From a virus (taxonomy: Duplodnaviria; Caudoviricetes): DNA of 64,000 nucleotides. The stretch is from IMG/VR virus record IMGVR_UViG_3300032232_000840, positions 3,717 through 67,716 of that record, one strand, 5' to 3'. Both the position numbers and the translations under genes were made by a program. A model generated the notes under the pieces. It saw only the letters and a program-made list of their open reading frames with translations, ran no database searches and was not told where the DNA came from. Positions 3,170-6,987 of the stretch are shown here, one piece after another. How positions within the stretch are numbered: the first letter of the stretch is position 1; each line of letters begins with the position of its first letter.

Positions 3170-4426
3170 GGGAGGGGGCGCGGATGGTTTGAACCATTTG
3201 AAATGCAGGATTTGGAAGTTAAATAAAAGAGTAGTGATTAGAGGTGTTAAGAGGCAATTAGGGGACTTAACCATGTTAAATAGGGTTTTACCCCCACCCA
3301 CCCCCACCCGACTTTTTTATAGATAAGTCGCTACAGAACAGAGAGATAGGCCAGAAAAAAGGCGTTTGGGTAGGGGGGGGAGGGGCACTTTCAAAAACTC
3401 TCCGGAGAGAGGGGGTGCGAAAACACCTCTCCCTATATATATATATCTCTAAAATTAATTTAAGATATTTACCCCTACCACCCCCACCCCAAGTCCTCCC
3501 ACCCCCACTGGTACTGGCGCAAACGGGGTAGGGGTAAGCAAAAACCACCCCCACCCCTACCCCCACCCACCCCCACCCCAGGTGCCCTGTTACTCTGTAG
3601 AGCTGGTATTTTGACCTGTTGCCCTGTTGCTTGGGTACCAAGAGCCTTGGTAGAGTGTTTGCAGGATTGCAGGGTAACGGGGTAACGGGGTAACAGGGTC
3701 GCCAAGTACTAATTATAAACGTATTAGTACTTGAGTGTAAATAAGGTCGGACGGGGTTCAGGTCGCTGCTCACTGGGATAACCCCAGTGAGCCCCTCAAT
3801 GCCCCGCCCGATTTGAGCTGGAACTTGTGAGTGATTCTTACAGGTTCCGCAGACCAGACTCTACACAAATGTTCACAAATGGCAAGGTTTTGTAAACCCG
3901 AACGGGTACGATCTTTGAGTTATACCTCAATTTTATACCCTTTCGGTCATATCTTTGAGTTATAAGTCATATTGAATCCGAACAACTACTCCTTGGTGGT
4001 AAACATGATATACCACTCGTGAATGGTAAACCACGCCTATTTATCGTTCAGGCTGGGTTTAGATTTGTATGTATAAACTCCCCTCATAGGTGATTATCCC
4101 AGTATTTTTTAATCAAGCTACGATTCATTTCCAGCAACTGAGGTAAATGGTGTCAGAGATCGGCAACAACCCTAGAATGTCAACTATAGCTTACATAATC
4201 GGCAATTATGTCGCGTAAAGCAAACAATAGCTTCTGTTACAGATCGGCAAAAGGATCGGCAATTTGAGCCTATAGTCTAATCTTGACCCCTAGTTTTTAG
4301 ACCCTGAGCTAAAACTCGACCGAGACCCTGGCTATATTGCCTCGATTCTTGCCGCCTAGGAGCCCCGCCAGCGAGTTTTTAGGGTTCGGGAGCTCCTTAT
4401 TCTGCTTCCTGGCCGCCAAAACGCTT
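3170..4426. other. Non-coding, repeat-rich region (candidate replication origin or packaging region)
   Basis: No credible ORF. Contains C/G tracts, a (TA)n run, GGGTAAC x3, a 10-bp hairpin at 3768-3792, ATCTTTGAGTTATA x2 (3911, 3951) and ATCGGCAA x4 (4159, 4198, 4243, 4255). Confidence 0.55.
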
Positions 4427-5212
4427 TTAAGCGGCTTTTAGGAGCTCAAGTGCCGCCATTGGCCTGCCCAGTAGCCAGAGTTCCACGTCAGGCGTGATCA
4501 GGTCACGTTTTAGTTCGTTGATCCTGCCCGGTATAACTCGGAGGTTTGCGGGGTGATGGAGACCTCCTAGAGCTAGGGGCAAGACATGATCGACGTGGAA
4601 TCGAATTCCTGAGCACTTGGTTACCCTGGACGCTAGACTGTAGATGCTCGTAGTGATCTCCTTGAGTTCTTTAGGTAGAGCCACTCTTGTCTTGCTCCGG
4701 CGAGCTGCTTTCTCAGCTCTTCGCTTATCTGGATTCCTAAGCCTTTCTCTCCTGCGCTTATCCCTTTTTCTCTGTTTCTTAGTCTTATCCCGCTCTTCGG
4801 CCAGCTTCAGGTAGTTCAATTTTCGCACCTCCTTTTCCCTTTCTCGATCCCTGCGAGTTTTTTCTAACCGCGCTTCCTTACGCTCTTTACGCTCAGATCT
4901 CTCTTTTGCTTTCTTGGCCTCTCGCCCCATTCGGGCTTCCTCTATGCCGCGCCAGTACTTTTCAGATTTAATGCGTCCCTTCTCTTTAGCTTTGGCTTTG
5001 TACGCCTCTAGTTTCTCGGGGTTCCTTTCTCTCCATTTTTTCTGATCCGCACTGGCCTTTTCCCGGTTGGCTTCGCGGTACTTCTTCAGTAATTCTCTGT
5101 ACCTTTCTTTATTTTCGGCCTGCCATTTCCTTGATTTGGCGATCTTGTCCTCTCTGTTCGATAGGTAGCGCAACCTGGCGGCCTCCTTTTTTGCGGCTTC
5201 GTCTTTAGGCAT
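4427..5212 (-). CDS. HNH endonuclease with a long basic helical N-terminus
   Basis: C-terminal HVDHVLPL..GGLHHPANLRVIPGRINELK. Confidence 0.85.
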   Translation of the reverse strand: MPKDEAAKKEAARLRYLSNREDKIAKSRKWQAENKERYRELLKKYREANREKASADQKKWRERNPEKLEAYKAKAKEKGRIKSEKYWRGIEEARMGREAKKAKERSERKERKEARLEKTRRDREREKEVRKLNYLKLAEERDKTKKQRKRDKRRRERLRNPDKRRAEKAARRSKTRVALPKELKEITTSIYSLASRVTKCSGIRFHVDHVLPLALGGLHHPANLRVIPGRINELKRDLITPDVELWLLGRPMAALELLKAA

Positions 5213-5334
5213 AGGTGTCCTATACCGCAGGCATACCGCGATGTATACCTAAAAAATTTTACCAAAAAATTCCACAGAGGGGGATATATACGTTTGACGA
5301 TTGGTTCGGCCTCCCCCACCCCACACCCCCCGGC

Positions 5335-5820
5335 GGGTAGGCGCGGAGAAGATGAACTCCGGCCTGCTCACTTATTCGGCTAACTTGTCAGCTGCGAGTC
5401 CTCCAATGGAGGCCAGCGGATCGGGATGGAAGCCCCGACTGTCTAGGTGGCCAATGGCTACTGAAGCTCCCTAATGGGGGAACGAGGCTTGTCGTCTCTA
5501 ATCGACACATGGGGTGTTCCTACGCTCTCCAATAAACCTAGTGCGGCCGCAAGGCTTAACTACCTAGGTGAGGGGCAGTTAAGGGGAAAACACGAGACGG
5601 AGCCCATGTAAAAGGAAACGGATAATGTCTTTTCCATGCTCGGGAGTGGGTAGCACCACCTTGAGTAGATACAGTCAGTCTCTGACGGAACCTTCCGATA
5701 ATGGCACCAGGATGCGTGTGCTTAAGGGGGAAATCCGTGAACGCCGCCAAATGCGGGCGGCGATCAGAGGGGACACTTTAACCTTACCCCTCTGATGTAT
5801 CGCCCGCAACATTATGCGGA
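5335..5820 (+). ncRNA. Candidate large structured RNA or structured leader
   Basis: At least 12 consecutive hairpins with many G-U pairs on the + strand, recurring AAU/UAAU loops and a GCAA tetraloop; no convincing ORF. Confidence 0.5.
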
Positions 5821-5842
5821 CACAACACAAGGAAAGAAAGTT

Positions 5843-6154
5843 ATGTCCAACACCACTAAGAAAGAGAAAGTCGCCGTTGCTCCCTCCGTTATTGCGGAGC
5901 AGATTGTCACCGCTGGCAAAGCCCTCGGTTATGTCACTAAGGAGTTCGGCAAGGGATCGTTCGTGATCTCTGTCAAGGACTCCTATGTCCAGTTCTTGTC
6001 CAAGCTCCCCAAGGACAAGGATTGCTCTGCTGAAGCTCGCCTCTTCCGAGGCTTGGTCAAGGGAGTCGAGGGACTCGTGAACGGCGATTCCAAGCAGACT
6101 TGGGTCATCCACCGCAATGGCTCCTTCGGCCACTACGGCAAGTTCGCCTCCTAA
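5843..6154 (+). CDS. Hypothetical early protein
   Basis: ATG preceded by GGAAAGAAAG; strongly C-ending codons; followed by a terminator. Confidence 0.75.
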   Translation: MSNTTKKEKVAVAPSVIAEQIVTAGKALGYVTKEFGKGSFVISVKDSYVQFLSKLPKDKDCSAEARLFRGLVKGVEGLVNGDSKQTWVIHRNGSFGHYGKFAS

Positions 6155-6181
6155 TCTCTGACAAGTAGGAGCATTGACCCT

Positions 6182-6209
6182 CAGCCTCACCCTGCAAAGG
6201 GTGGGGTTG
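6182..6209 (+). terminator. Hairpin terminator between convergent genes
   Basis: 12-bp stem CAGCCTCACCCT/AGGGTGGGGTTG with a GCAA loop. Confidence 0.65.
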
Positions 6210-6212
6210 CAG

Positions 6213-6839
6213 TCAGTTTTCCTCGGTTACAGATCCCAAACCCGTCAAATTACTCTGTGAGGGTTCAGGATCGGACACTTCTAGTACACTTTCGGCAATA
6301 AACTCGCCTTCAATGACTACATCTTGACCTTGTGCCATGAGTCTCTCATTCACAAGTTGAAGGCTCACGATCGTGTTGACCTTGCCCTCGTTGTCATCAA
6401 TGCCGAGCAACCTCCGCATCATCTTGTCGGCAATGTCCATGTCCTTCCAATTCCTAGGTGGAGCAACAATGCTCTGATCCAACAACATTGCCATCTTCTG
6501 AATCCCTTTGTTTCGGTAATCCTTAGTCGCTTGGTCAATATCGACCACTGAAGCTGCCGATGTAGGTTTTTGAGCAGCATCTGCGGCCATTATCTGCTCT
6601 GTGAGAGATTTATTAACCGCAGCCATGCGACCCTGTGACTCTGTTACTCTGTTACCCTGCTCCTCGATCGCCTGTTTCAGTGCATCCGATCTCCTCTTCG
6701 GTGTATCCCATTTGCCTCTCAGGCTACGTGCTTTAATTGTAGCCAGCTTGATGTCGAACAGAGAAGCCACCTTCCTCATCGGCATCCCTGCTTCCACTGA
6801 CTCTTTAATCTTGTCCCACGGGACATTTAGTTGATTCAT
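6213..6839 (-). CDS. terS: Probable terminase small subunit (N-terminal HTH)
   Basis: From Met at 6839: WDKIKESVEAGMPMRKVASLFDIKLATIKARSLRGKW resembles phage TerS N-terminal HTHs, followed by a helical region. Confidence 0.55.
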   Translation of the reverse strand: MNQLNVPWDKIKESVEAGMPMRKVASLFDIKLATIKARSLRGKWDTPKRRSDALKQAIEEQGNRVTESQGRMAAVNKSLTEQIMAADAAQKPTSAASVVDIDQATKDYRNKGIQKMAMLLDQSIVAPPRNWKDMDIADKMMRRLLGIDDNEGKVNTIVSLQLVNERLMAQGQDVVIEGEFIAESVLEVSDPEPSQSNLTGLGSVTEEN

Positions 6840-6897
6840 TCGGTATCCTTTAACATCAACTCTTCGGTATAAGCAACCACTAAATAACAATCCTATC

Positions 6898-6987
6898 ATG
6901 CACACGAGAACCATACTTACTACCTTTTTGGGAGCTATTATCTTCATCGCCTACTTCGCCCTCTTTGCGGCGTACCTCTTCGCTTAA
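6898..6987 (+). CDS. 29-aa single-TM peptide (not in the ORF track)
   Basis: MHTRTILTTFLGAIIFIAYFALFAAYLFA. It has the CCTATCATG leader used by other genes here and a motif copy at 6866-6880 upstream. Confidence 0.5.
   Translation: MHTRTILTTFLGAIIFIAYFALFAAYLFA

Follow-up and report, generated by a model that had tools for sequence, protein, structure and literature searches.

Bacterial and phage RNAs longer than about 400 nucleotides (nt) with many conserved helices are rare. The known ones, ribosomal RNA, RNase P, group I and II introns, OLE, GOLLD, ROOL, and HEARO, are catalytic, guide proteins, or form RNA-only assemblies. Among the large ornate RNAs, GOLLD, ROOL, and OLE exceed 400 nt and contain many conserved helices (bioRxiv 10.1101/2024.12.08.627333). 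A further such large RNA, outside Rfam, occurs in temperate phages that infect lake bacteria. It was found in a 64,000-nt stretch of DNA, referred to below as the window, which comprised bases 3717–67716 of the 67.7-kb IMG/VR virus record IMGVR_UViG_3300032232_000840, an uncultured temperate lake phage rated 97% complete. In window coordinates, the structured region was located in a 631-nt gap between a 261-aa open reading frame (ORF) on the minus strand (4427–5212) and a plus-strand ORF of 103 codons (ORF103) starting at 5843. A first-pass annotation, made from the window alone, had proposed a hairpin-dense RNA at 5335–5820.

The region very probably belongs to a new family of conserved, structured plus-strand RNAs. 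Selection as a plus-strand RNA was deduced from compensatory changes and wobble exchanges in sequences that the first-pass annotation never saw; its proposal of a large unannotated plus-strand phage RNA, either non-coding or a leader, therefore held beyond the sequence on which it was made. A single full homologue came from another IMG/VR phage (L002/L003), in which the upstream 550 nt aligned with positions 5274–5842. The RNA was 78.5% identical to that of L002 (115 substitutions in 535 aligned columns), with 88–90% identity in 5301–5350 and 5501–5600, and ORF103 was identical at 65% of nucleotides and 61% of amino acids. Logan contigs of three lake-metagenome runs (X2, X3, and X5) from two studies were aligned with the region at a minimum likeness of 80%. 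Their variant lists were nearly complete for 5306–5508 (X2 and X3) and 5508–5751 (X5), with 29 substitutions and 8 indels beyond those listed. The over-called N-termini of the ORF103 relatives P0002, P0010, P0005, and P0013, together with the pseudo-ORF P0019, read through the last ~100–140 nt of the RNA, and these read-through peptides showed conservation of the 3′ end in four further lineages (P0002/P0010, P0005, P0013, and P0019).

The 14 adjacent stems of the first-pass annotation each folded as described when the interval was folded alone. They had been defined from the window, and were then scored on L002, where 94.5% of the cells were paired and 10 pairs were changed on both sides. With slid partners, 0–2 double changes were obtained, and none of 500 shuffles reached 10. 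When the minimum free energy (MFE) structure of the window alone was scored on the L002 substitutions, 9 double changes were observed versus 2.9 expected, and 30 broken pairs versus 42.7 expected (P ~0.002). The X2, X3, and X5 contigs added independent compensatory changes at 5401:5411, 5421:5438, 5422:5437, and 5616:5633, and a GCAA-to-UUCG swap. More than 10 changes interconverted Watson-Crick and G-U pairs. These held on the plus strand only and would be A-C mismatches on the minus strand; therefore, the functional strand was the plus strand, as had been claimed from the many G-U pairs, which were taken as a sign of RNA-level selection and direction. G-U was present in at least one sequence at 18 of the 105 pairs in these stems and at 26 of the 135 pairs given by RNAalifold.

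Conservation of the stems was uneven. For nine of the 14, compensatory changes, wobble changes, or swapped loops provided support. Three were invariant, and two were broken in the homologue, namely 5674–5686, with three of five pairs lost in L002, and part of 5335–5369. The invariant and hence uninformative elements were 5511–5528, 5742–5762, the stems of 5536–5569, and the long-range helices that RNAalifold drew from a C-rich tract at the 5′ end. From 5′ to 3′, the RNA upstream of its 3′ module contained the following parts.

5274–5299, plus strand: conserved upstream block ACAG-GGG-n-ATATATACGTTTGA, at which homology with the relatives starts (L002 alignment)
5306–5334, plus strand: C-rich 5′ tract UCGGCCUCCCCCACCCCACACCCCCCGGC, identical in X2 and, from the contig start at 5322, in X3; one inserted C in L002
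5335–5369, plus strand: partly conserved stem S1 (13 bp in the window), unchanged in both X2 and X3; five pairs broken and two gapped in L002
5391–5417, plus strand: hairpin Ha with outer GCUG.G/C.CAGC, inner CCUCC/GGAGG, and a variable loop; four covarying pairs in two independent lineages
5421–5438, plus strand: hairpin Hb UCGGG/CCCGA, with three stem versions (ATGGG/CCCAT in L002, GAGGG/CCCTC in X2/X3)
5443–5466, plus strand: hairpin Hc with a conserved AAU-centred loop; 5448:5460 U-A to C-G in L002
5467–5480, plus strand: hairpin Hd CUCCC-UAAU-GGGGG with an invariant loop; 5468:5479 U-G to G-U in L002
5490–5507, plus strand: hairpin He UGUCG/CGACA; 5490:5507 U-A to G-U in L002, loop UAAU in the window and UGAU in L002
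5524–5578, plus strand: long hairpin Hf with a GCAA-capped tip and invariant stems; tip UUC(G) in L002 and X5, stem kept
5579–5613, plus strand: purine-rich core strand UUAAGGGGAAAACACGAGACGGAGCCCAUGUAAAA, 100% identical in L002; one inserted A in X5
5614–5635, plus strand: hairpin Hg GGAAA.GGAU-AAU-GUCUUUCC; 5616:5633 and 5617:5632 A-U to G-C in L002, the former likewise in X5
5637–5667, plus strand: hairpin Hh with double changes at 5637:5667, 5639:5665, 5640:5664, and 5649:5656 and one one-sided change, all in L002
5686–5721, plus strand: two small hairpins, CGGA-ACCU-UCCG (5686–5697) and GCAC...GUGC (5704–5721), read from the alignment

The four compensatory pairs of Ha were 5393:5415 and 5396:5413 (L002), 5401:5411 (C-G to A-U in X2 and X3), and 5402:5410 (U-A to C-G in L002). 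In Hb, as aligned by the tool, 5421:5438 changed from U-A to G-C, and 5422:5437 from C-G to G-U (X2) or G-C (X3). The substitutions 5458 C>U and 5459 U>C of Hc exchanged G-C and G-U pairs in X2, X3, and X5, and Hf contained one-sided wobble changes at 5528:5574 and 5530:5572. For the small hairpins, L002 had UGGAA-CGC-UUCCG and CGCAA...UUGCG, with 5707:5718 changed from C-G to A-U; this part is less certain, as the RNAalifold fold differed here. The first 19 nt of the purine-rich core strand recurred at 5722–5740 (internal repeat family D6).

At the 5′ end, a contig of run X3 aligned with the window from 5274 and was unlike it before this position, and the block at 5274–5299 is a candidate core promoter or transcript start. 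A Bacteroidota −7 motif, TAnnTTTG at 5289–5296, was dropped; it occurred 33 times in the window versus 23 expected, mostly within genes. RNAalifold paired the C-rich tract with the G-rich strands 5511–5517 and 5582–5586 through invariant pairs, which carry no covariation information. Two copies of UUAAGGGG(G)AAA in the RNA were both complementary to this tract. Alternatively, the tract could be a Rho-loading (rut-like) tract.

Recurring AAU loops had been noted in the first-pass annotation. Four tight hairpins, each with a stem of 4 bp or more, had AAT in the loop (5405, 5453, 5473, and 5624), versus 0.5 in shuffles (P ~0.0005) and 0.38 per 486 nt in the rest of the window. The loops of Hc (AAU core, within 5446–5462), Hd (UAAU, 5467–5480), and Hg (AAU closed by U-G, 5614–5635) were kept in relatives, as was an unpaired GAUAAUG at 5696–5702. 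The loops at 5400–5412 and 5490–5507 varied: Ha had GUAU, GAC, or GAU in relatives, and He had UGAU in L002. The loop motif is real, and it is not universal. A protein sponge that binds through AAU loops, as put forward in the first-pass annotation, would thus fit the data only in part. A CsrB/RsmZ-type sponge was rejected; GGA was present only in the Hb loop (AUGGAAGC), where L002 had AAGCACGAG, and the recurring loop motif was (Y)UAAU.

The MFE of 5335–5820 on the plus strand was −195 kcal/mol, compared with −169.9 ± 6.4 kcal/mol for dinucleotide shuffles (z −3.96), which agreed with the expected excess over shuffled controls. On the minus strand it was −174.8 kcal/mol (z −2.96), and the plus-strand value was thus better by 20 kcal/mol.

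The view that no good ORF covers the region was borne out. Frames with a start codon inside it were of 40–57 aa only, and minus-strand frames of 64 and 171 aa overlapped it. A 73-aa stop-to-stop frame on the minus strand had no relative among 5.8 billion proteins, and the search with a 70-aa plus-strand frame returned only the read-through pseudo-ORF P0019 and two low-complexity matches. Substitutions between the RNA and L002 were distributed 42/39/34 by position, with no codon periodicity, whereas those in ORF103 were distributed 30/26/52. Furthermore, 11 of the 14 indels in the RNA were not multiples of 3, and every frame was broken.

No tRNA, tmRNA, group I/II, or hammerhead core had been recognized at the outset, and both class searches came back empty. 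A search of the whole window with Rfam 15, the scope of which included GOLLD, ROOL, OLE, HEARO, CsrB/RsmZ, C4, T-box, group I/II introns, RNase P, and 6S, gave no covariance-model match at the gathering score. At E up to 10, positions 5100–6000 and the L002 homologue each gave three chance matches of 12–19 bits, to differing families. ARAGORN found no tRNA or tmRNA gene in the whole window. A group I or II intron was rejected because there were no exons that join into a continuous ORF; the upstream side was non-coding or, in this phage, an inserted minus-strand ORF, and ORF103 downstream had its own conserved ATG and ribosome-binding site.

So far the family is small: it comprises two genomes in IMG/VR, contigs from at least two metagenome studies, and, at the protein level, six clusters of ORF103. 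ORF103 had seven relatives of 61–99% identity in six 90%-identity clusters. Neither ORF103 nor the 261-aa ORF as a single query gave related loci, and an ORF103 alignment as query gave one locus (L002) in viral contigs and none in metagenome or genome contigs. Five conserved blocks of the RNA, used as exact patterns, matched only in the L002/L003 contig, and a pattern of the 3′ hairpin had no match in metagenome or genome contigs. A blastn search against 50,697 phage records gave no match, and no paralogue was found in the phage's own genome. The X2 and X3 contigs matched 5306–5508 (~90%) and 5741–5900 (~96%), and between these they contained 273 bases that could not be aligned at 80% with the 232 bases of the window (5509–5740). 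In that lineage, the middle of the RNA has therefore either been exchanged or diverged far more, even though no part is better conserved in L002. L004 and L005 were rejected as homologues, with a score of 11.6 bits for a model of the 5′ half of the RNA (E 0.044 over 88 kb). These near-identical small IMG/VR contigs (L004 1325–1484 and L005 207–366 on the minus strand) had an exact C-rich 19-mer, CCCCACACCCCCCGGCGGG, upstream of a Gly/Pro-rich ORF, and the sharing of this 19-mer is probably due to chance.

The 3′ part of the RNA was composed of a four-segment module directly followed by the translation start of ORF103.

5742–5819, plus strand: 3′ module of segments X CGCCGCC (5742–5748) and Y GCGGGCGGCG (5753–5762), hairpin Hj (5763–5796), and segments Z CGCCCGC (5801–5807) and W UGCGG (5815–5819)
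5829–5836, plus strand: Shine-Dalgarno-like AAGGAAAG preceded by CA-rich ACACAACACA, read from the sequence and retained by L002 and by the P0006 and P0002 peptide extensions
5843–6154, plus strand: ORF103, a conserved 103-aa basic, lysine-rich protein with seven relatives, predicted to be folded (predicted local distance difference test, pLDDT, of 81)

The segments could form either X:Y and Z:W or Y:Z and X:W. In silico, these two conformers had energies of −39.3 and −40.1 kcal/mol in the window (0.8 apart) and −34.7 and −37.3 kcal/mol in L002 (2.6 apart). X, Y, Z, and W were identical in the window and L002, and X, Y, and Z also in the four lineages inferred from peptides. Hj was replaced by an unrelated 9–11-bp helix in L002, and the read-through peptides suggest further versions of Hj in other lineages. 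Invariant strands around a freely replaced Hj would be the pattern expected of a strand that fits two partners, as in a switch. The module preceded ORF103 in all lineages with visible upstream sequence (window, L002, P0002/P0010, P0005, P0013, and P0019), and it ended 10 nt before the Shine-Dalgarno sequence. A terminator scan found no terminator-like site in 5213–5843, hence none between the RNA and the ATG, and conservation continued as far as the ribosome-binding site. ORF103 itself matched no Pfam or PHROG family, had no Foldseek match in PDB or BFVD and no ESM Atlas neighbour, and showed no recognizable RNA-binding fold in the structure comparisons. Its best VIA match, to part of a glycosyl hydrolase, had a Z of 5.7, below the noise level of the tool.

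The reading favoured here, for which the chances seem about even, is that of a large cis-acting leader RNA with a 3′ switch. Two features spoke for it, namely that nothing interrupts the RNA before the ribosome-binding site and that its 3′ module is bistable: the RNA lay directly upstream of an ORF with conserved linkage, and its pairings were mutually exclusive in silico. Positions ~5295–5842 would be transcribed rightward as a highly structured RNA of ~545 nt that forms the 5′ leader of the ORF103 mRNA (5843–6154). The C-rich 5′ strand would be followed by the five short hairpins Ha–He, several with (Y)UAAU or AAU loops, then by an invariant core of the long hairpin Hf and the 35-nt purine-rich strand, and finally by Hg, Hh, the two small hairpins, and the four-segment module. 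The upstream fold may serve as a platform that senses or binds either a protein, perhaps ORF103 itself, or a second RNA. The state of this platform would select the 3′ pairing, X:Y with Z:W or Y:Z with X:W, and the choice of pairing would set ORF103 expression through Rho access to the C-rich and CA-rich tracts, processing, or translation initiation. We infer transcription, transcript ends, ligand, and regulatory output alike. As a leader, the RNA would be among the longest structured cis-regulators in a phage, and its four-segment switch would operate without a terminator or pairing of the ribosome-binding site, pointing to Rho or processing as the output. The RNA and a small protein of unassigned fold would make a compact two-part system that is amenable to expression and probing.

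Several observations weigh against this reading. No RNA run was present among the sequencing runs that contained the region, so that transcription and transcript ends are putative. The sigma-70 scan found no consensus site at 5274–5299 and no sigma-70-type site anywhere in 5213–5843. There was no U-tract terminator in 5213–5843 and the Shine-Dalgarno sequence was unpaired in both conformers, which leaves the regulatory output unexplained; the output would therefore be Rho access, processing, or another mechanism. The covariation was drawn from one full homologue and three partial, incompletely listed variant sets, and the long-range helices and the X/Y/Z/W pairings were invariant and gave no covariation information. 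When the folding energies of 300-nt windows were regressed on G+C content, the region was just 1.0–1.7 standard deviations better than the genome mean and was no energy outlier, the best-folding part of the window being 3500–3800; therefore, energy alone would not pick it out. Finally, a leader (here of 545 nt) is not usually conserved more strongly than the protein (here of 103 aa) that it would regulate, and this argues for a function of the RNA of its own.

Such a function is central to the next explanation, which is a serious rival and clearly the less probable of the two. In this view, the RNA is either a large non-coding molecule that stands alone and acts in trans or the RNA component of a ribonucleoprotein. 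After its synthesis together with ORF103 it would be set free, for instance by RNase III acting on the long, irregular Y:Z and Hj hairpin, which consisted of two helices around an internal loop. This shape resembles the RNase III sites of T7 and lambda. No terminator or separate promoter was found between the RNA and ORF103 in the scan of 5213–5843, and both the processing site and a binding partner are putative. After release, the RNA might use its UAAU-loop hairpins to sequester a protein of the host or the phage, as a decoy or sponge does; it might also be a scaffold partnered by ORF103, or a catalytic or assembling RNA in the way of other large ornate phage RNAs. The RNA was longer and better conserved than ORF103, and four AAU-loop hairpins stood against 0.5 expected, three of them retaining the loop in relatives, although the Ha loop was not conserved and that of He was UGAU in L002. 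ORF103, for its part, was small, lysine-rich, always linked to the RNA, and without a fold match.

A more specific form of this explanation, held tentatively and slightly below it, is a new class of large (~500 nt) ornate phage RNA that functions as RNA, in a particle with ORF103, as a decoy or anti-defence element, or as a self-assembling or catalytic molecule. Function would reside in the array of UAAU loops and in the purine-rich core, and the linkage to the ORF would reflect a co-expressed partner and not regulation. No large-RNA model of Rfam matched the region. If it acted in trans, an RNA of this kind would make a new class among the few large ornate RNAs known.

ORF103 was a lone plus-strand gene, flanked by minus-strand genes, and the gene after it (6213–6947) was convergent. 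The transcription unit appears to contain the RNA and ORF103 only, because the next gene was convergent and a hairpin was located between the two.

6185–6206, no strand assigned: 9-bp hairpin CCUCACCCU-GCAA-AGGGUGGGG between the convergent ORF103 and a 244-aa minus-strand ORF, identified by inspection of the sequence

This hairpin is the probable end of the transcription unit, a two-way terminator with no clear T-run, and it was not called by the terminator scan, which requires one. A 171-aa open frame on the minus strand (5675–6190), antisense to ORF103, extended into the 3′ end of the RNA, and a shorter equivalent was open in L002 (2839–3066); it is likely a shadow frame. On the other side of the RNA, the 261-aa minus-strand ORF was Lys/Glu-rich and had weak PHROG matches to the endonuclease VII family (E 1e-6). 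It looks like an inserted free-standing gene because it was missing from the related phage, in which L002 2363–2430 directly joined the equivalents of window positions 4386 and 5264. Three GGTAT repeats (5213–5250) preceded its start on the minus strand and resembled a genome-wide GGTAT-N5-ACC motif of the first-pass annotation. The window also encoded a primase-helicase-like protein at 497–2659 (DUF5906 and primase PHROGs) and a polyvalent protein of 3081 aa with a Kinase-PolyVal domain (Pfam).

An ORF-poor stretch of ~1.2 kb followed the replication genes (window 3170–4427; L003 10450–12350) and contained several repeat families. Repeats of the CCCCCACCC type were located at 3291–3580, three copies of GGGTAACGGGG at 3675–3700, and four clustered copies of ATCGGCAA at 4159–4262, the last occurring 14 times in the window versus 3.9 expected; an AT-rich stretch was also present. 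The related phage (L002/L003) retained the ATCGGCAA cluster, and CCCTAAC(A) repeats replaced the C-rich ones. The stretch at 3170–4427 probably serves as an origin or iteron region whose sites are specific to the phage. Within it, 3500–3900 had the most extreme plus-strand folding energy in the window: at −127.8 kcal/mol per 300 nt, it was 4 standard deviations below the G+C-corrected mean. No Rfam family matched there.

A replication-linked RNA is improbable. Much as ColE1 RNA II does, such an RNA would activate or prime the origin-like region next to it; alternatively, it would be the target of an antisense copy-control RNA. Its own YUNR-type CUAA loops would be the recognition loops. A length of ~550 nt and a 5′ array of short hairpins recall RNA II, C-rich and G-rich strands were present, and the RNA lay directly downstream of the 1.2-kb ORF-poor region after the primase-helicase gene, with C-rich repeats and with ATCGGCAA iterons that were kept in L002. 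However, the RNA is directed away from the iterons and leads into the ribosome-binding site that precedes a conserved ORF, the promoter scan of 5213–5843 found no antisense promoter, and the phage encodes its own primase-helicase. L003 had other origin repeats (CCCTAAC) and the same RNA, which shows that the two are not coupled in sequence. A ColE1 RNA II-type primer was rejected on the following ORF, the missing antisense promoter, and the direction of the transcript.

Still more doubtful is an element that acts as DNA, through single-strand hairpins or protein sites; examples would be operators, primosome signals, and hairpin promoters like those of the N4 virion polymerase. N4 early promoters have a 5–7-bp stem and a 3-nt loop, and several hairpins of this geometry were present, with Ha, Hc, and Hg fitting; Hf, Hh, and Hj, however, were long and irregular. 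The minus strand also exceeded its shuffles (z −2.96), but the wobble-type changes would be C-A mismatches on this strand, the would-be template for rightward transcription, and the GNRA-to-UUCG swap at the Hf tip is typical of RNA. The phage has a virion-type polyvalent protein of 3081 aa, in which no RNA polymerase domain was detected and Pfam found Kinase-PolyVal only.

The absence of any function of its own, with the resemblance due to recent shared ancestry or recombination and the hairpins to chance in a G+C-rich spacer, is the least credible explanation: homologues were very few, the region was no folding-energy outlier within this genome, and the relatives were mosaic (273 unlike bases in X2/X3 for 5509–5740), but the compensatory changes exceeded every control, the spacer was better conserved than the flanking genes, and X, Y, and Z of the 3′ module were invariant across six lineages in which ORF103 differed by up to 39% of amino acids.

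When the RNA was compared with regulatory leaders, it shared a position directly upstream of an ORF and C-rich, possible Rho tracts with the trp leader (pairing 1:2/3:4 versus 2:3) and the Rho-dependent mgtA and corA leaders. As in attenuators and riboswitches, four conserved segments formed two mutually exclusive, near-isoenergetic folds. In contrast to these leaders, it lacked both a U-tract terminator and a leader peptide, the Shine-Dalgarno sequence was left unpaired, and its upstream "sensor" of ~450 nt was far larger than typical aptamers. The lambda N leader (nutL and an RNase III hairpin) and the early RNase III sites of T7 provided a second comparison. Here the likeness consisted of a long structured leader before a gene of ~100 aa in a temperate phage, and of an extended, irregular hairpin that contains an internal loop and lies shortly before the ribosome-binding site. 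Unlike the lambda N leader, the RNA had no recognized boxA or boxB and was more than twice as long, and ORF103 was predicted to be folded (pLDDT 81), unlike the disordered, arginine-rich N protein.

The immunity RNAs CI of P4 and c4 of P1/P7, which are processed from the leader of the transcript that they control, are likewise temperate-phage leader RNAs with internal repeats. The present RNA differed from them in its much larger size, in having no Rfam match (C4 included), and in that no RNase P-type acceptor stem or CCA was seen. It differed from GOLLD and ROOL in that no covariance model matched at E up to 10, no tRNA genes were nearby, no terminator separated the RNA from the ribosome-binding site of the conserved ORF behind it, and the RNA is so far known from few lake-phage contigs. 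It resembled GOLLD and ROOL in its size class (~500–800 nt) and its many conserved hairpins (bioRxiv 10.1101/2024.12.08.627333), and in being non-coding and of unassigned function; GOLLD and ROOL, too, are often borne by prophages or phages, and GOLLD was also first seen in lake metagenomes.

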